Below, piece after piece: positions 1,534 to 62,113 of a stretch of 64,000 nt of DNA. The notes below the pieces were generated by a model. The model had not been told where the DNA came from and searched no databases. It saw only the letters and a list, made by a program, of their open reading frames with translations. The stretch lies in assembly GCA_951406725.2 (NCBI GenBank), contig OX597815.1, forward strand, positions 182,218,001 through 182,282,000, in the 5' to 3' direction. This DNA is from Octopus vulgaris. Taxonomy: Eukaryota. Both the position numbers and the translations under genes were made by a program. Positions within the stretch are counted from its first letter, which is position 1. The number at the start of each line of letters is the position of its first letter.

Positions 1534-1905
1534 CGTATTTTTATTGCTATTGTTCATCAGCCATGCTAAAAGTGTTTTGGATCCTCCGTAAGTTTGTGTC
1601 TTATTTTCCTTCTTAGAAGGTGATATTTGCTGACTTCGTTGTCTTATTTTCTTATTGATTAGACTGGTAATGTATCTGGTCGTCCCTTTTTGTTACCCCC
1701 CCCCCCCCCACCCATGGGGCAGAAACTCCGAACGAAAGAACTTTCTTTTAAAGCAAAACAAAAACATTTGAGACAGCTTATGGTCTTGCCAGTTTTGTCG
1801 CTGAAAAATAATGTTTTTTCCGGTCTGTCAGCGAGACAAAAATGTAGGAGGTAAATTGAAGTTGAAACTAGCTTTCACACTCAACATCTACAGGCTAACA
1901 ATATT

Positions 1906-2306
1906 CTTTTCTACTCTAGGCACAAGACCCCAAATTTTGGGACAGGGGTCCAGTCGATTAGATCGACCCCAGTACGCAACTGGCACTTAAATTTATCGAC
2001 CCCGAAAGGATAAAAGGCAAAGTCGACCCCGGCGGAATTTGAACTCAGAGCACGAAGACAGATGAAATACTGCTAAACATTTCGCCCGACGTGCTAACGT
2101 TTCTTATTTCTTTACTACCCACAAGGGGCTAAATGTAGAGGGGACAAACAAGGACAAAGGGATTAAGTCGATCACATCGACCCCAGTGTGTAACTGGTAC
2201 TTAATTTATCGACCCCAAAAAGATGAAAGGCAAAGTCGACCTCGGCGGAATTGGAACTCAGAACGTAAAGACAGACGAAATACCACACACTATTTCGCCC
2301 GGCGTG
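1906..2306 (-). mobile_element. SINE family A dimer (tRNA-derived head, Meta-domain-like body)
   Basis: Two copies of body GCCGAGGTCGACTTTGCCTTTCATCCTTTCGGGGTCGATAAA; B-box-like GTTCAAATTCC; flanking direct repeats CAGGCTAACAATATT (1891-1905) / CAGGTTAACAGTATT (2307-2321). Confidence 0.85.
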
Positions 2307-2977
2307 CAGGTTAACAGTATTGAAACGACAGCCACAACAGCAGTAACAACTCGAAGTCGAACAAACTGTGCAACGCAGTCTACTATGTTTAAAAGGACGG
2401 GATAGACACGGTTGAAATGCATTTGATCACAGGCCGGCTTAGATTAGACTATTATCATAGGCATCCGTGTCACTGCGCAGGAAACTGTAACAGTTGACTA
2501 GTTCTGGCTATAGATACCACACTGAGGATAGTTACAAAATCGAAAGGATCCTTAAGACTATACAGTGGAATAGTTGAAAGAAGTACGAAGATGTTTTCTA
2601 CTAAAATTCTGTTTGATCTACGGACTCGTAACTGTGTGAAAGGAATTAATGTCATTGATTTTTAATTATAACTTTGAAGTCAGCCTGTAATAGAAGTATG
2701 TTCAGATCATAAAATAATAGCTAACCTGTTGTTCTACTATGCAGTGCAGTAATAATGTTATATCAGAAAATTGAAATGAGATTTCTATGTAGCAGGATGT
2801 AACAACTGTAATGAAAGTTTTTAACCGACAAATAAACAGATTCAAAAGAGACAGTTAAGCAATCTATAAAGAATATAGGCTCTTCTAACTTTATAATAGT
2901 CCTTTTATTGAGTGACGTATATGTGTTTACGTTTGAATGTCTGTACGCACGAATGCAGGTGCAGGTATGTTTGTATA

Positions 2978-3880: not shown

Positions 3881-3955
3881 GAAGAAGAAAGAGAAGAAGA
3901 AGAAGAAGAAGAAGAAGAAGAAGAAGAAGAAGAAGAAGAAGAAGAAGAAGAAGAT
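3881..3955. repeat. (GAA)n microsatellite
   Basis: Direct reading. Confidence 0.97.
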
Positions 3956-4109
3956 GAAAGAGGAGGAGAAGAATGTGGGAGTGCCATGATAGTAGTAGGA
4001 TGCTAAATGGTCAAGTGCCCTGAAGGGATGCCTCAAGAATTCAATCACTACTACCATCCACAACAAGTTACTTTCAGGGAACTTAATCAACAACACTACT
4101 GCGAGTGAA

Positions 4110-4500
4110 AAATGCAGAATGTGAGGTGAAAGAGGTGAAACGGTATGGCACATCGTTAGCGAATGCCCGAAATTGGCACAGCGCGATTACAAAAGACGAC
4201 ATAGTAATGAGGCAAGAACAATCCATTGGGAGTTCTGTGGAAATCACGGTCTACAAAGAGCAAAGACGAGGTATGAGAAAATTCCCGAAGGAGTCACCGA
4301 AAATGAAGATTGCAAAATGCTGTAGGATGCAATGGTTCAGTACGATCACCAGACCAGACATCGGAAACCGGACATAGCTGTCGTGAATAAAAAGGCAAGA
4401 ACTTGCAGGATTATAGACATACCACGTCCTGGTGACAACAAGAGAAAGAAGAAAAACTGAACAACTACGACAGATGACTTTTTCCATCATACTCGGCAAA
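4110..4500 (+). pseudogene. 3' fragment of R4/Dong-like non-LTR retrotransposon (CCHC knuckle plus restriction-like endonuclease)
   Basis: Manual translation KCRM*GERGETVWHIVSECPKLAQRDYKRRH...IHWEFCG...ML*DAMVQYDHQTRHRKPDIAVVNKKARTCRIIDIPRPGD; two in-frame stops; followed by an (AAT)/(AAC) tract. Confidence 0.85.
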
Positions 4501-4566
4501 ATAAGGTGAGAGTTTTCGTCAAATAATAATAGCAACAGCTACAACAACTATAATAATAATAATACT

Positions 4567-5147
4567 CCTTTCTACTATTCGTACGAGGCCTGAAAATTTG
4601 GAGAAGGGGGTAAATCGATTTCATCGACCCCACTGTTTCACTGGTACTTACTTTATCGACCCCGAAAAGATAAAACACAAAGTCGACCTCGGCAGAATTT
4701 GAACTCAGAACGTAGCAACGGGCGAAATACCTATTTCTTTACTATCCTCAAGGGGCTAAACACAGAAGGGACAAACAAGGATAGACAAACGGATTAAGTC
4801 GATTATATCGACCTCAGTGCGTAACTGGTACTAATTTAATCCACCCCGAAAGGATGAAAGGCAAAGTCGACCTCGGCGGAATTTGATCTCAGAACTTAAC
4901 GGCAGACGAGATACCTATTTCTTTACTACCCACAAGGGGCTAAACACAGAAGGGACAAAGAAGGACAGACAAACGGATTAAGTCCATTATATCGACCCCA
5001 GTGCGTAACTGCTACTTAATTTATCGACCCCTAAATGATGGAAGGCAAAGTCGACCTCGGCGGAATTTGAACTCAGAACGTAACGGCAGACGAGATACCG
5101 CTAAGCATTTCGCCCGGCGTGCTAACGTTTCGGCCAGATCGCCGCCT
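4567..5147 (-). mobile_element. SINE family A trimer
   Basis: Three tandem bodies and a single complete head; internal junctions GAAATACCTATTTCTTT at ~4725-4741 and GAGATACCTATTTCTTT at ~4908-4924. Confidence 0.88.
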
Positions 5148-5164
5148 TCATAAAAATTACAACA

Positions 5165-7639: not shown

Positions 7640-8191
7640 TCTGGAACAAAGTGAGAAATTTAGAGGGGAAGAAACAAGCCGATTTTATTGAGCCAGTGCT
7701 TAGCTACATAACTGAGATTTTATTTTATCGACTCCGAAAGGCGAAGAGACGCAGCTGACCTCGGTGTGATTTGAACACAGAATGTAAAGAGTCAAAAGGT
7801 ATGCCACCAAAAGTTTGTTCGTCGCACTATCCACTCTACAAGCTCGCCACATTTTGTAATATTGATTTCTAATGTTTGCATAAGGCCAGCAATTTCGGGG
7901 AAAGTTATAAGTCGGTTACATTGACCCCAGTGCTCAAGTGGTACTTATTTTATCGACCCCGAAAGGATGAAAGGCAAAGTTGACCTCGGCGGAATTTGAA
8001 CTCAGAACGTAGCGACAGACGAAATACGTTCTGAGTTCAAATTCCGCCGAGGTCAACTTTGCCTTTCATCCTTTCGGGGTCGATTAAATAAGTACCAGTT
8101 ACGCACTGGGATCGATGTAATCGACTTAATCTGTTTCTCTGTCCTTGTTTGCCCTCTCTGTGTTTAGCCCCTTGTGGGTAGTAAAGAAATA
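7640..8191. mobile_element. SINE family A cluster: diverged copy plus head-to-head fold-back copy
   Basis: Diverged minus copy 7640-7850; minus copy 7865-8027 abutting plus copy 8027-8191; GGTACTTATTTTAT at 7940-7953 and 8192-8205. Confidence 0.8.
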
Positions 8192-9062: not shown

Positions 9063-9299
9063 ATATTTCTTTCTTTATTGCCTACAGGGGGTTAAACATA
9101 GAGGGGAGAAACAAGAACAGACAAAGAGATTATGTTGATTATATCGATCCCAGTGCGTAACTGGTATTTATTTAATCGACCCCGAAAGGATGAAAGGCAA
9201 AGTCGACCTTGGTGGAATTTGAACTCAGAACGTAACAGCAGACGAAATACTGCTAAGCATTTCGCCCGGCGTGCTAACGTTTCTGCCAGCTCGCCACCT
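9063..9299 (-). mobile_element. SINE family A monomer
   Basis: Full head GGTGGCGAGCTGGCAGAAACGTTAGCACGCCGGGCG, body and AATAAAGAAA tail. Confidence 0.88.
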
Positions 9300-9356
9300 C
9301 ATACCATAATACCGTAAGGCATTGGGGCCAGCAATCTACCGTTTGCTAACAATAAA

Positions 9357-9751
9357 CTTTTCTACTCTAGGCACAAGACCCGAAATATTTGGGGAAGGAG
9401 CCAGTCGATTAGATCGACCCTAGTACGGAACTGGTACTTAATTTATCGATCACCGAAAGGAGGAAAGGCATAGTCGACCTCGGTGGAATTTGAACTCAGA
9501 ACGTAAAGGCAGACGAAATACCTATTTCTTTATTACCCACAAGGGGCTAAAGACAGAGGGGACAAACAAGGACATAGGTATTAAGTCGATTACATCGACC
9601 CCAGTGCGCAACTGGTACTTAATTTATCGACCCCGAAAGGATGAAAGGCAAAGTCGACCTCGGCGGAATTTGAACTCAGAACGTAACGACAGACGAAATA
9701 CGGCTACGCATTTCGCCCGGCGTGCTAACGTTTCTGCCAGCTCGCCGCCTT
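9357..9751 (-). mobile_element. SINE family A dimer with TSD
   Basis: 16-bp direct repeats GTTTGCTAACAATAAA (9341-9356) / GTTTGCTTACAATAAA (9752-9767); internal junction GACGAAATACCTATTTC at ~9512-9528. Confidence 0.9.
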
Positions 9752-9994
9752 GTTTGCTTACAATAAAGCACAGGCAATATTAACTGAAAGTATCCGTTCA
9801 ATCATAGCATATATAATTTTTTCTTCATTTTCTCTTATTTTTTTGCTATACACACTTAAATTCTCTTACCTTTCATCTTCTTAAATCCTTACTATGCTGA
9901 TGTCGCTTTCACTTTTATCTAAATTTGCGTTTATATCTTTTTGCCCCGTGTCCATATTCATTTTCTCCCTTTCTCCTCCTTACCACCACTTACC

Positions 9995-16773: not shown

Positions 16774-17177
16774 TTGATATTGCCTGTTAGGTCCAGGTTT
16801 TATGTCAACAATTTCTATGCTTCGCAGCAAGGCTGGTAGACTGAATCCTTCGCCCACTTGGTCCTGTTTAGTAAAGTTAAGCCTGATATTAAATTGGATA
16901 ATTTCTTCTGTTTGTGGACATGTCGATAAACTATAGGTGTTGTATGTACTACTTCTTTCTGTATCAATATAGAGATTCCTTACATGATTGGTTTTCCTGG
17001 AATAGAAATAGAATCCAAATTTATGTCAAATCATCCTTACCAACTTACAAAGGAAAGCGCAGTGGTCCTTTACACGTGTTAAATTTAATCTCAGGTTCGC
17101 TTGACTAGGAATGACTTAATGGAACAAATTTCGGCATCTATAACAGACTCCCCCATCTAATGTCTGTTACTAAAATA

Positions 17178-17336
17178 TTCTTTGTCTATTCTAGGCACAA
17201 GTCCCGAAACATTTGGGGAGGGGGCCAGTCAATTAGATCGACCCTAATACGCAACTGGTGCTTAATTTATCGACCTCAAAAGGATGAAAGGCAAAGTCGA
17301 CCTCAGCGGAATTTGAACTCTGACAGACGAAATCCC
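17178..17336 (-). mobile_element. SINE family A copy, head truncated at LINE junction
   Basis: Body plus tail type 2 (CTAGGCACAAG on +); ends at GACGAAATCCC where the LINE tail starts. Confidence 0.8.
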
Positions 17337-18555
17337 AATTTCTTTATTGCCCACAGGGGGCCAAGCACAGAAATGGACAAAACAACTGATTGGAATCAGT
17401 AATATGTTATGATTTTACATAAAATATGAATATAAAAATTATATAAAATATATAAAAAATCGAATGAAATTAACAATACAGAGACAACACAAATAGAGCG
17501 ATGATCAGGCCACGTTCCGACCCTACAAGCCCCAATCTATCGCTGGTACTATTTTTGTTCTTCTTTTATAGCCTATTCACACAGTTCCTTGCACGCACAA
17601 CACTCGTGCAACATGCTTCCATCTCTTTTTGAACATACTCTCCGACAGACACCTATTCTCCAGCCACACCTTCCTTTTCAAATGAAAAGTAAAAAATGAT
17701 CGTAAATCGTGGCCGGAGATAAAGTTGCCTGTCTTAATCCCTTTTATCCTAGTCTTCCATACTGCCTCTTTTGCTAGTGCTACAACCGTGAGTAAACAAT
17801 TCTTACCTTCGTTCGTTAAAACTTTCGCTGGGTCAATTTTTATAAGTGACTCAATCGACAGCTGTACTCTTCCTTCGCTGGACAACAGGTGTTCAGCATA
17901 CGCCCACATTTCAGATATCTCCGGACACTGGACAATAACGTGAGGGACGGTTTACCTGTCTACCCGCATCTTGGACAGGTCGGTGACTGACGCTTACCTT
18001 GTCTTGCGAGCTTATCCCAAACGGGCGAGGTACCTCTGTAACATTGCCAGGACAAGGACTTTTGGAAGTTGTCCAACGTTCTCAGGCTGTCCAGTTGAAT
18101 AAACCCGAGACCTAGTGTCGCCCCCAGGTCATCGTCACATTCAGACTCTACCAATCCACTATATAAAATTCGAGTAGAAACCCCACCGCTGGCGTTGCCC
18201 GAGCGCCGGAATAGCTGGAGGGCCTTACGGCACTCTTTATGCCATTCACTTGACCTAGGTCTACGAAAATACCAGGCTTCCTGTTCGCAAAAACTTTTGA
18301 ATTCGGAGAACATTTGTCTGGCCAGCGGAGACCACACCCGTTCATCATCCAGGAGAATCCAGAGATGCCTCAACCTCAACGCATTCCTGCGCATCATTAA
18401 CCAAGGCATCTCTAAACCTCCCTTTAACGGCTTTTCACAACAGACAGAGCATTTCACAAGTGGTGTCCTGCTCTTCTATAAAAAGCGAAAGAACTGTCTC
18501 TCCAATTTGATCAACTACGAATCCGGATATGGCACGACGGTCAGTGCGTATCGGA
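17337..18555 (-). mobile_element. 5'-truncated Tx1/L1-clade LINE (ORF2 C-terminus with zinc knuckle, 3' UTR, tail)
   Basis: KGGLEMP...LRLRHLW...CPRCG...VPHVIVQCPEISEMW...FHLKRKVWLE...FKKRW; T-rich 3' UTR ending GGCCCCCTGTGGGCAATAAAGAAA. Confidence 0.8.
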
Positions 18556-22495: not shown

Positions 22496-22525
<30 letters not shown>

Positions 22526-22528
<3 letters not shown>

Positions 22529-22674
22529 CGCCGAGGTCGACTTTGCCTTTCATCCTTTCGGGGTCGATAAATTAAGTACCAGTTACGCACTGGGGTCGAT
22601 GTAATCGACTTAAATTCGTTTGTCTGTCCTTGTTTGTCCCCTCTATGTTTAGCCCCTTGTGGGTAATAAAGAAA
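22526..22674 (+). mobile_element. 5'-truncated SINE family A (tail type 1) inside (TA)n
   Basis: Body plus tail TTGTCCCCTCTATGTTTAGCCCCTTGTGGGTAATAAAGAAA. Confidence 0.88.
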
Positions 22675-29407: not shown

Positions 29408-29972
29408 TTCAAGTACCACTTGAAAAGGAAAGTGAGAGTAGAGAGGCAAGTTTTGTCTAGCGAATGTTTTAAAAAAAGATGGGTGAATGTAGCAAGGATG
29501 GCACGTATGAATGACGAAGCCACCTTGAGCATAATCCTATGAGCCCAGAAATTGAAAACAGAGGGTTACCCACTTGCAAACAAATGTGGTAACATATAAC
29601 AATATTGACCAAGGTTACCGTGATCTTTTTCGTAGGCTTTTCTTCCCACGGATAAACCTTACTTGCTTTCCCCTTTACACCATATATCATAACACTGTGA
29701 TACACGATCCCTATTGATCGTTTATTTTTCCTCTTCCCCTTTTTCCCCCTTATTTCTTCTTTTTTCATTTGTCTTTTCTTTTGTTCCTTTTCCTTTTCTA
29801 CTTTTAAAAAATTTTTTTTTTGTTCTTTTTCCCTTTTACGATCCCTTTTGATCGAAAACCTACGCCACCTTTTTTTGTTTCTTTTGTTTTTGTTTTTTTC
29901 ATCCCCCAAAAGAAAAGCTCTACCTTGTAACTTGTCCCATCTGTGTGCAGCCCTGTGTGGCCAATAAAGAAA
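29408..29972 (+). mobile_element. 3' end of Tx1/L1-clade LINE inside a (TATC)n tract
   Basis: FKYHLKRKVRVERQVLSSECFKKRWVNVARMAR is homologous to FHLKRKVWLENRCLSESMFKKRWKHVAR in the 17577 ORF; T-rich UTR; tail AGCCCTGTGTGGCCAATAAAGAAA; TATC repeats on both sides. Confidence 0.8.
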
Positions 29973-49569: not shown

Positions 49570-50920
49570 AGTACACGTCTAAACACAAGCACATACACAC
49601 ACAAACCCAAACTCACACACACATTCGCACATGCACACGCACACATACACACACATATAACTTGGATACAAATGTCAATAAAAATATAAAAATTGTTACA
49701 GAGAATGCTGACAAACAGAAAAAAATGGGACAAATATGTGAAAATTATTATCTGCTGAAAGAGAAGTGAATTTTGTAGGATTCTTTGCAGTAAGGAGAAT
49801 TTCGAAAAGGAAATGAAATATGCAATTAAAATGGTGGAAGTCGGATTTATTAATGGATTTGCTTAACAGCTTAAATTTTAAATAAACCTAATTACATTTA
49901 CATTGAAGGGTGTGGTGAGCATTCAATATGCCAGAAAGTGCATTGGGGTGTGACAGATTGCGTTTTGGTATTAATATAGCTTCTGTCGTTAGTTATTTTT
50001 TATATACCCGATAGCTATTCGCGACTTCATTACCTGAATAGTGACTGAAATTCCATAGATTTGACTGGTGTGAGTCTACCGGACGCCTGCCATTGAAAAG
50101 TCGGGTCACGTGGAAATAACGTGATCTTGCAGTTCTGGTGCCTGTAGCGAATGATATATTTCTTTACTACCCACAAAGGGCTAAACGCAGAGGGAACGAA
50201 CAAGGACAGACAAACGGATTAAGTCGATTACATCGACCCCAGTGCGTAACTGGTACTTAATTTATCGACCCTGAAAGGATGAAAGGCAAAATCGACCTCG
50301 GCTGAATTTGAACCCAGAACGTAACGGCAGACGAAATACGGCTACGCATTTCGCCCGGCGTGCTGACGATTCTGCCAGCTCACCGCCCTCCTGTTGCGGA
50401 TGATATACACACACGATCTACATCTCGTAGCAGACGTGCACTACATTTACTAAACGTATTATTACACATCCAAACACAAGCACATACACACATACGAACT
50501 CAAGCAAACACAAACTCACACTCACATGCACACATGCACACGCGTGCGCACACACACATAACTTGCATACAAATATCATTAAAAATATAAATAGTGTTAC
50601 AGAGAATGCTGACGAATATTAAAAAATGGGACAAATATGTGAAAATTATTATATGCTGAAAGAGAAGTGAATTTTGTAGGATTCTTTGCAGTAAGGAGAA
50701 TTTCGAATAAGGAAATGAAATATGCAATTAAAATGGTGGAAGTCGGATTTATTAATGGATTTGCTTAACTGCTTAAATTTTAAATAAATTTAATTACATT
50801 TACATTGAAGAGTGTGGTGAGCATTCAATATGCCAGAAAGTGTATTGGGGTGTGACAAATTGGATTTTGATATTAATACAGCTTCTGTCGTTAGTTATGT
50901 TTTGATATACCGGATAGCTA
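49570..50920. repeat. Local direct duplication of ~450 bp (49570-50017 and 50462-50920)
   Basis: Long shared blocks such as GCTGAAAGAGAAGTGAATTTTGTAGGATTCTTTGCAGTAAGGAGAATTTCG. Confidence 0.92.
50159..50389 (-). mobile_element. Full-length SINE family A monomer with 18-bp TSD
   Basis: CCTGTAGCGAATGATATA (50141-50158) / CCTGTTGCGGATGATATA (50390-50407). Confidence 0.92.
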
Positions 50921-61852: not shown

Positions 61853-62059
61853 TATTTCTTTATTGCCCACAAGGGGCTAAACATAGAGGGGACAAACAAG
61901 GACAGACAAAGGGATTGAGTCGATTATATCGACCCCAGTATGTAACTGGTACTTTATTTATCGACCCCGAAAGAAAGGCAAAATCGACCTCGGCGGAATT
62001 TGAACTCAGAACGTAACGGCAGACGAAATACCGCTAAGCATTTCGTCCGGCGTGCTAAC

Positions 62060-62062
<3 letters not shown>
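61853..62062 (-). mobile_element. SINE family A monomer between microsatellites
   Basis: Tail type 1, body and most of the head. Confidence 0.88.

Positions 62063-62113
<51 letters not shown>

Follow-up and report, generated by a model that had tools for sequence, protein, structure and literature searches.

The window, by which we mean the whole 64,000-nucleotide stretch of octopus DNA analysed here, contains a decayed LINE whose 3' end runs directly into the middle of a SINE head, and several SINE units that are joined to one another at the same place. This raised the question of whether the LINE and the SINE share a target, and whether that target is the SINE itself. The initial annotation had proposed that the LINE preferentially nicks the SINE head and that the SINE subfamily with the LINE-like tail inserts into its own relatives, homology-guided 5' joining leaving a single head. 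The reading that we favour, to which we would give a probability of roughly 0.78, is that sister APE-type LINEs of the L1/Tx1 group sit at fixed nucleotides of a tRNA-like SINE head (families A1 and A2 at 50/51, family D at 17/18), likely through nicking by their endonuclease, and that the SINE sharing their tail occupies the same sites, likely by borrowing the LINE protein. The sites, the nesting in older SINEs, the dependence on the tail and the donor-type 5' copies are read from sequence comparison.

Results

Junctions in the window

SINE positions are numbered on a natural copy in the window (9752-9524, minus strand), in which the head begins at nt 4. The LINE 3' end does abut a SINE head, GACGAAATCCC being followed by AATTTC at 17336/7, and the equivalent SINE-SINE junctions, placed earlier near 4731, 4915 and 9521, lie at 4731/2, 4915/6 and 9522/3, at the same head position (Table 1). 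The LINE fragment had been extended to about 18555; its alignment to a 5.15-kb genomic copy (L031), the last 1.2 kb of which it matches, stops at 18544. It comprises the end of ORF2 (the zf-RVT region), the 3' UTR and the tail, RVT_1 and zf-RVT being seen in family members; its 5' part and host head were not found within the window. The whole dimer at 9351-9752 is bracketed by a 16-bp duplication (9341-9356 and 9752-9767, one mismatch).

Two other places in the window deserve mention. At 7908-8190 two SINE pieces lie head-to-head, inverted and joined near the same head site (nt 51-68), possibly through twin priming or inversion at the target. At 29923-29972 another element has a similar hairpin-AATAAAGAAA tail closing in a (TATC)n repeat, and is probably a SINE served by another sister LINE.

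Table 1. Repeat elements and junctions in the window
Feature	Position	Strand	Basis or remark
3' 1.2 kb of old, decayed L1/Tx1-group LINE, family A1	17337..18544	-	87.8% to nt 3923-5152 of full-length genomic copy L031
LINE tail, short hairpin then AATAAAGAAATT, common to SINE tail type 1	17337..17381	-	82-86% over 44 nt to six window SINE tails; hairpin predicted
Target site, SINE head nt 51-61; LINE 3' junction 17336/7	17326..17336	-	Identical site in 72/72 family-A 3' ends
Host SINE, tail type 2, head nt 51 to tail	17174..17336	-	
Added tail-1 SINE unit with the single head, G46/C51 head variant	9524..9752	-	
Host tail-2 SINE from nt 51; junction 9522/3	9351..9522	-	
Trimer: head and tail-1 unit 4917-5148, tail-1 unit 4733-4914, terminal third-tail unit 4561-4730	4561..5148	-	Junctions 4915/6, 4731/2
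Dimer: 5'-truncated tail-1 unit 2106-2307 on tail-2 host 1900-2104	1900..2307	-	Joined at second site, head nt 17/18 (2104/5)
Solo tail-1 SINE, off-target insertion	9070..9299	-	
Solo tail-1 SINE with 18-bp target duplication	50158..50387	-	
Solo tail-1 SINE amid simple repeats	61854..62063	-	
5'-truncated solo tail-1 SINE amid (AT)n runs	22525..22674	+	

LINE families A1 and A2 at one nucleotide of the SINE head

The 2.8-Gb genome was scanned with queries from which flanking sequence had been left out, and the LINE samples are the best-scoring copies rather than a census. With a LINE-only query (40 of 289 candidates scored), all 30 fetched matches, the window copy included, ran into a SINE at nt 51, one of them being followed into the SINE for six bases only. 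The SINEs on the 3' side carry tail 1, tail 2 or other tails. By chance such an encounter should be rare: even where sampling was centred on SINEs, the 118 heads in 925 kb account for about 6e-5 of oriented positions. When all fetched loci were pooled, 72 of 72 distinct A1 and A2 3' ends lay at nt 50/51 (70 by automatic match, 2 by eye), and the preference proposed for the window LINE is thus an enrichment across the genome. These 72 are the ends with a LINE match of at least 120 nt, a cut-off that excluded L293, a SINE with an A2-like tail at an unrelated site. Because the last base of the tail overlaps nt 51, the break is at either 50/51 or 51/52; duplications around off-target copies place the nick at 50/51, and family D and A2 leave a one-base ambiguity.

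Family A2, found by protein search, is a young sister of A1 (84% amino acid identity) with an intact 1134-aa ORF2 and a CCHC ORF1; its exact tail was matched 68 times, some of the matches coming from intermediate copies. For 13 of the 15 A2 bodies compared, divergence from the column majority is 0.09-0.71%, the remaining two being at 2.2% and 4.5%; their host SINEs diverge by 5.6% at nt 67-95, about ten times as much, so that the hosts are older than A2. The hosts are of several kinds (tail 1, tail 2, tail 3 and multimeric SINEs), and the LINE is nested inside older SINE copies of several subfamilies. A crude automatic search over 30 A2 pairs, two of these 30 forming a tandem pair, found the host's own duplication enclosing head, LINE and SINE remainder in 14, and several loci of A1 and D have the whole compound similarly enclosed. 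An empty allele was not seen; at L240 the contigs of four sequencing runs were swamped by genome-wide SINE contigs.

The initial annotation had noted, as a caveat, that no head is left at the 5' end of the window LINE. This was resolved by the full-length copies. A query with the A1 5' end gave 30 loci, one of them without that end; in the other 29 the sequence in front of the LINE is a head ending near nt 64, present as a bare head in 5, with tail-1 unit(s) in 21 and as a piece of nt 18-64 in 3. The A2 5' ends adjoin a bare head at 30 of 30 loci, so that the rest of the head stands in front in 59 of 59 (A1 29, A2 30). About 19 incomplete A1 copies, that of the window among them, have neither head nor host duplication upstream. 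Since the 5' end of four other seemingly truncated A1 copies turned up at a distance of 0.8-22 kb, the missing part was likely lost or displaced by later deletion or insertion, which is demonstrated in those four and assumed for the window copy. A search for host duplications abutting truncated LINE starts, a sign of compound transposition, found none.

Two further observations concern these copies. Young A2 copies with a truncated 5' end were nearly absent from those examined, an unusual state for the L1 group, and the short copies that were viewed are internal deletions. At L312 a LINE 3' end is joined through the target 14-mer straight to the 5' end of another A1-like LINE, giving tandem LINEs at one site.

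LINE proteins

The A2 ORF2 contains Exo_endo_phos, RVT_1 and zf-RVT, the APE, RT and zinc-binding layout of the L1/Tx1 group, and its closest solved relative is human L1 ORF2p (E 1.8e-64). Tx1-clade ORF1 proteins have one or more RNA-binding domains and a CCHC knuckle; here zf-CCHC scored above the Pfam cut-off in ORF1, and Atlas look-alikes include CCHC proteins and, at 0.89, clusters of the ZCCHC3 RBD/RRM type, which is no more than a lead. Among named proteins, the one closest to the LINE protein comes from Argonauta hians (52% identity); metagenome scans returned either nothing or relatives of 23-40% identity only. In a FastTree phylogeny of 38 proteins, built without reference Tx1 elements, the families of this genome formed a clade with the Argonauta protein, A1 and A2 grouping with family C and family B with Argonauta; the sole match named 'Transposon TX1' (31% identity) fell outside that clade, at an unresolved node. 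Target-specific families have been defined by more than 20% of flanks lying in one repeat type (in the pertinent part of PMC4494074); the share was 72 of 72 for A1/A2 and 13 of 13 best tails for D.

The SINE with the shared tail at the same site

Tail type 1 of the SINE resembles the LINE tail (Table 1); no SINE tail identical to that of A1, A2 or D was found. Its exact 32-nt pattern occurs 40,542 times in the genome and is followed by the next ten bases of the site in 12,703 cases, compared with 1 of 15,518 occurrences of the control, tail 2. Enrichment at this head position, which had been suggested as a check, therefore holds genome-wide for the SINE tail as well. The SINE likely borrows the site-specific enzyme of the LINE, and this would make a self-targeting loop, with over ten thousand head-to-tail SINE junctions as its trace.

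The SINE is looser than the LINE. Of 145 tail-1 ends in loci sampled around tail-1 matches, 77 were assigned to the main site, 7 more were placed there by eye and 2 lay at nt 18; slightly more than half are thus at the site, and the rest prefer the short look-alikes GGTAT or ATAT. The off-target copies have ordinary 10-24 bp duplications in 27 of 70 cases, starting with GGTAT- or ATAT-like letters, and the solo tail-1 copies pointed out earlier in the window exist (Table 1). About 14 of 92 tail-2 ends are followed by another SINE head within 10-30 nt (for example L032, L100, L170 and L181), and off-target insertion may favour the AATATT with which tail 2 ends.

Motifs resembling the A and B box consensus are visible in the head, and the main site lies between these putative boxes. 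ARAGORN and Rfam report no tRNA in the head, and Rfam at three loci found neither a ribozyme nor a tRNA.

Origin of the SINE multimers

Requiring a head, complete inner units and later units starting at nt 49-54, we found 57 multimers in 209 canonical SINE loci. Of these, 24 ended in tail 1, 21 in tail 2, 2 in tail 3 and 10 in another tail. The initial rule that the terminal unit has tail 2 and the added units only tail 1 held for the added units, as the tail-2 control indicates, and failed for the terminal ones, in which tail 1 is about as common as tail 2 and, in the window, a third tail occurs (4561-4730). The 21 terminal tail-2 units are mutually distant (minimum 7.3%, with 0 of 210 pairs below 4%) and in 17 of the 21 arrays exceed the added unit in divergence, which argues against descent from a single ancestral dimer, one of the two origins that would have spoken against targeting.

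The other, tandem duplication, applies to a part of the material. Rare variants were common to adjacent units at 28 of 251 first junctions and 18 of 107 later junctions, compared with 151 of 14,555 random pairs. This low sharing between neighbours suggests that most junctions are independent, a minority of arrays apparently having grown by local duplication. Mismatches in the outer duplications amounted to 12/173 (6.9%) for tail-2-ended multimers, 24/393 (6.1%) for solo tail-1 and 23/146 for solo tail-2 copies, small numbers that include some doubtful tail-2 matches. Because the outer duplications of tail-2-ended multimers thus look tail-1-aged, some multimers may have moved as compound RNAs, and for that reason 12,703 is a count of junctions and not a tally of independent events. 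At L068 a nested insertion has retained both heads. Short tandem sub-units were seen at the 5' end of L035 (SINE nt 157-229 four times) and the 3' end of L246 (nt 15-99 three times), which suggests reiterative template slippage or local duplication.

Donor and host letters at the 5' junction

The two copies in a true TPRT target-site duplication are identical at insertion. Young A2 loci do not have this property: the 16-mers at the two LINE ends were identical in only 7 of 30 pairs, and host-private variants were mirrored across the locus in 2 of 19. At L244 and L245 a variant is mirrored on both sides, as in a true duplication. Nucleotide 64 of the 5' copy follows the LINE lineage (L235, L236 and L240 have common body variants and C64, L237 and L242 common body variants and T64), and could simply be the first base of the LINE. 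When nt 51-63 only were scored, by eye, there were 8 unmirrored host variants against about 2.5 expected to have arisen after insertion (p about 0.004). The G46/C51 variant was present in 28 of 29 A2 heads and in 20 of 118 background heads; a preference for G46/C51 hosts could explain part of this donor signal.

The SINE multimers gave a similar picture. G46/C51 heads were found in 5 of 23 multimers ending in tail 2 or 3, compared with 0 of 36 such solos (p=0.007). At nt 66, tail-2-ended multimers were host-type in the last unit (15 of 21) and donor-type in the first (18 of 21), and their heads were less diverged over nt 12-38 than those of solo tail-2 copies (7.0% vs 12.4%, p=0.003). Taken together, the unmirrored host variants, G46/C51, nt 66 and nt 12-38 point to a donor that replaces much of the host head, and the homology-guided 5' joining proposed earlier, with one head left, is directly supported by a 5' "duplicate" of mostly donor-type letters.

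A sharp boundary of a LINE leader at nt 38/39 seemed visible in the alignments and failed against matched-subfamily heads; over head nt 39-66, the apparently lower divergence of A2 loci was not significant against same-subfamily heads (10/775 vs 21/800). In two sequencing runs, one with a different organism label, a contig spans the head/LINE 5' junction and starts at head nt 39; as 31-mers branch there, this start is uninformative about that of the RNA.

A second site in the head, and other relatives

The junction recorded at 2103 in the window had been set aside because it lies elsewhere in the head. It is at 2104/5, head nt 17/18, and has a partner of its own. Junctions of this type number 1,511 genome-wide, those among 100 listed being mostly GCAAT/GCAGT tail variants. 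At L099 an unrelated LINE tail stands at head nt 17/18, and this became the query: of 32 matches 20 were fetched, and the 13 best tails (query included) were all at head nt 17/18, with ORF2 remnants at 8 of these loci (42-76% identity to A2 by segment). The remaining seven comprised two with part of the tail and no SINE downstream and five with other tails. A search with the ORF1 of this third family, D, gave 20 loci. In 14 of them the 5' end directly adjoins head nt 2-33 (or 18-33), 2 had deleted versions of this arrangement and 4 had no recognisable 5' end. Family D appears from these junctions to be a second SINE-targeting lineage; families A and D use different sites of the same head, and no cross-over was seen in the samples.

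Family B (58% amino acid identity to A2, with an intact 1145-aa ORF2) has (ATT)n flanks at both ends in 30 of 30 loci, and also forms tandem arrays with a period of about 5.87 kb, for example six copies on contig C4 (L115-L144, L185-L204). Family C (72-73% to A2; intact 1132-aa ORF2; tandem period about 5.26 kb; L251-L254) has a 3' flank that translates like a related ORF1 in three loci, and may target the ORF1 of another LINE. Further related LINE tails with ORF2 upstream, at L418 and L422, are on other targets.

Discussion

Proposed mechanism and alternatives

In the mechanism that we propose, the endonuclease would nick the bottom strand at the site and reverse transcription would start at the tail, with its shared hairpin. 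The RNA would have SINE-head sequence at its 5' end, in the case of the SINE its own head and in that of the LINE a leader, and the end of the cDNA would anneal to the host head and take the place of part of it, so that a single head remains, with what looks like a 13-16 bp duplication. As every event would rebuild the head target, arrays of 184-bp units could grow, and local duplication, perhaps also retrotransposition of compound RNAs, would add units. A stronger version, for which we see somewhat less than an even chance, is a closed self-targeting loop in which the LINE endonucleases split the SINE promoter region, one lineage per nucleotide, the LINE RNA starts in the head and needs that leader to insert, and the SINE rebuilds head and target each time, converting older relatives to the donor promoter type.

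The main alternative is that specificity lies mostly in RNA-DNA pairing, a loose endonuclease (GGTAT or ATAT) nicking widely and only RNAs with target sequence at both ends completing insertion at homologous heads. Off-target SINE sites agree with the site over just about 5 nt; even where the host has tail 2, A2 brings a C at nt 51, so that at least this base is RNA-templated; C51 SINE junctions are rare (232) compared with the common C51 heads (15,981); and nearly every A2 copy is full length (68 exact tails, 65 5'-end candidates), which a need for 5' annealing would lead one to expect. We nevertheless consider this reading doubtful, given that the 3' side is host-derived past about nt 60, that A and D keep to different sites of one head, that the sister family B targets (ATT)n, and that the endonuclease is reported to be the chief determinant of the target in Tx1 elements (in the portion of PMC4494074 that deals with it). 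The site could also be set by structure or by a bound factor: an inverted repeat at nt 36-61 is predicted to form an 11-13 bp stem with a 4-nt loop around nt 47-50, placing the main site at the loop edge, G46/C51 and T46/G51 co-vary as a pair, and Pol III factors on the putative A and B boxes, between which the site lies, could tether the LINE complex. Yet the fold is no more stable than shuffles (z -1.16, 199-nt region), the off-target sites have primary sequence in common and the family D site is outside the stem, which makes such a determinant quite improbable.

The multimers could be mostly secondary, a few targeted junctions having been multiplied by local tandem duplication or read-through multimer RNAs, in which case the junction count would overstate independent targeting. 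Rare variants do run along whole units at L159, L176, L181, L101, L161 and L075, the sharing between neighbours (11-17%) exceeds the control, and not only the outer duplications but also the heads of tail-2-ended multimers look tail-1-aged. Most neighbours, however, have no variants in common, the terminal tail-2 units are too distant from one another and too diverged, and the nested insertion at L068 keeps both heads; we regard this origin for most multimers as unlikely, and the LINE data would be unaffected by it. That the SINE half is just part of the LINE transcript (3' UTR or transduction), with no targeting at all, would fit the incomplete A1 copies, which have a SINE on the 3' side only. 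It is very hard to reconcile with downstream SINEs that have different tails and about ten times the divergence of the A2 body, with a head before every intact 5' end, and with the lack of any host duplication abutting a truncated LINE start, and we give it hardly any weight.

Nicking by the LINE endonuclease at fixed nucleotides of the head, the reading that we prefer, would account for the many regularly built SINE multimers, with at least 12,703 exact junctions, which would otherwise be annotated as separate families or satellites. It also offers a direct test of how APE specificity changes: intact relatives at 58-73% identity occupy the SINE head, (ATT)n and, as it appears, the ORF1 of another LINE, and the second SINE site, at a distance of 33 nt, is occupied by a decayed relative. 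With their donor-type letters, the 5' junctions allow homology-guided joining of the second strand to be measured in natural events that number in the thousands. If the closed loop is true, the SINE would serve these LINEs as a safe harbour and a promoter donor while being their passenger, and the closely related endonucleases with their four targets would form a natural series on the switching of APE specificity.

Comparison with known systems

Octopus OR1 and OR2 were reportedly described by Ohshima and Okada in 1994 as tRNA-derived SINEs with a common head and core and different tails, and they are like the present family in being abundant tRNA-like SINEs with one head and core and several tails. 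The core of the present SINE also seems to resemble the Meta/Sauria SINE domain (CORE). OR1/OR2 are cited in PMC4824008 and PMC4758252, the passages on them containing neither a partner LINE nor self-targeting, and an octopus repeat annotation (PMC13282606) lists 13 recently active L1-Tx1 families and 893 unclassified SINE families, with no mention of targeting in its sections on these. A literature search, with Repbase entries, subscription papers and supplements outside its scope, found no report of a LINE/SINE pair that targets the SINE's own head or promoter region.

Dewa is a target-specific Tx1-type LINE. Others, as far as the relevant passages go, are Tx1L, which inserts into Tx1D, Keno, which inserts into U2 snRNA, and Kibi and Koshi, which insert into microsatellites (PMC4494074, PMC4640811), Utopia like Keno targeting U2 (PMC4640811). 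As there described, Tx1L, Keno and Kibi/Koshi are like the present families in being APE-type LINEs with precise 3' junctions and a multicopy target, and family B in (ATT)n resembles Kibi/Koshi; they differ in that none is described as targeting a SINE mobilised by the same LINE.

In R2 elements target sequence on the RNA gives precise, homology-guided 5' junctions, through a restriction-like endonuclease and a ribozyme. The proposed system is alike in carrying target sequence on the RNA, and differs in its APE-type enzyme and in having no ribozyme by Rfam. R2 elements with co-transcribed 28S flanks are mentioned within PMC4494074.

The closest known system is that of the crocodilian Tx1-Mar LINEs and SINEU, which share a Mariner DNA transposon as target, around positions 240 and 830 (Kojima, 2015; PMC4494074, in the sections on these families). 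As described there, it is alike in joining a group of Tx1 LINEs with the SINEs that it likely mobilises at a common target inside another repeat, in its two preferred positions used by different LINE families, in its tandem SINEs and in some LINEs with SINE-like 5' heads. It differs in that the targets there are regions of Mariner, whereas here the target is the SINE's own head, entered with single-nucleotide precision, and each insertion would rebuild it.
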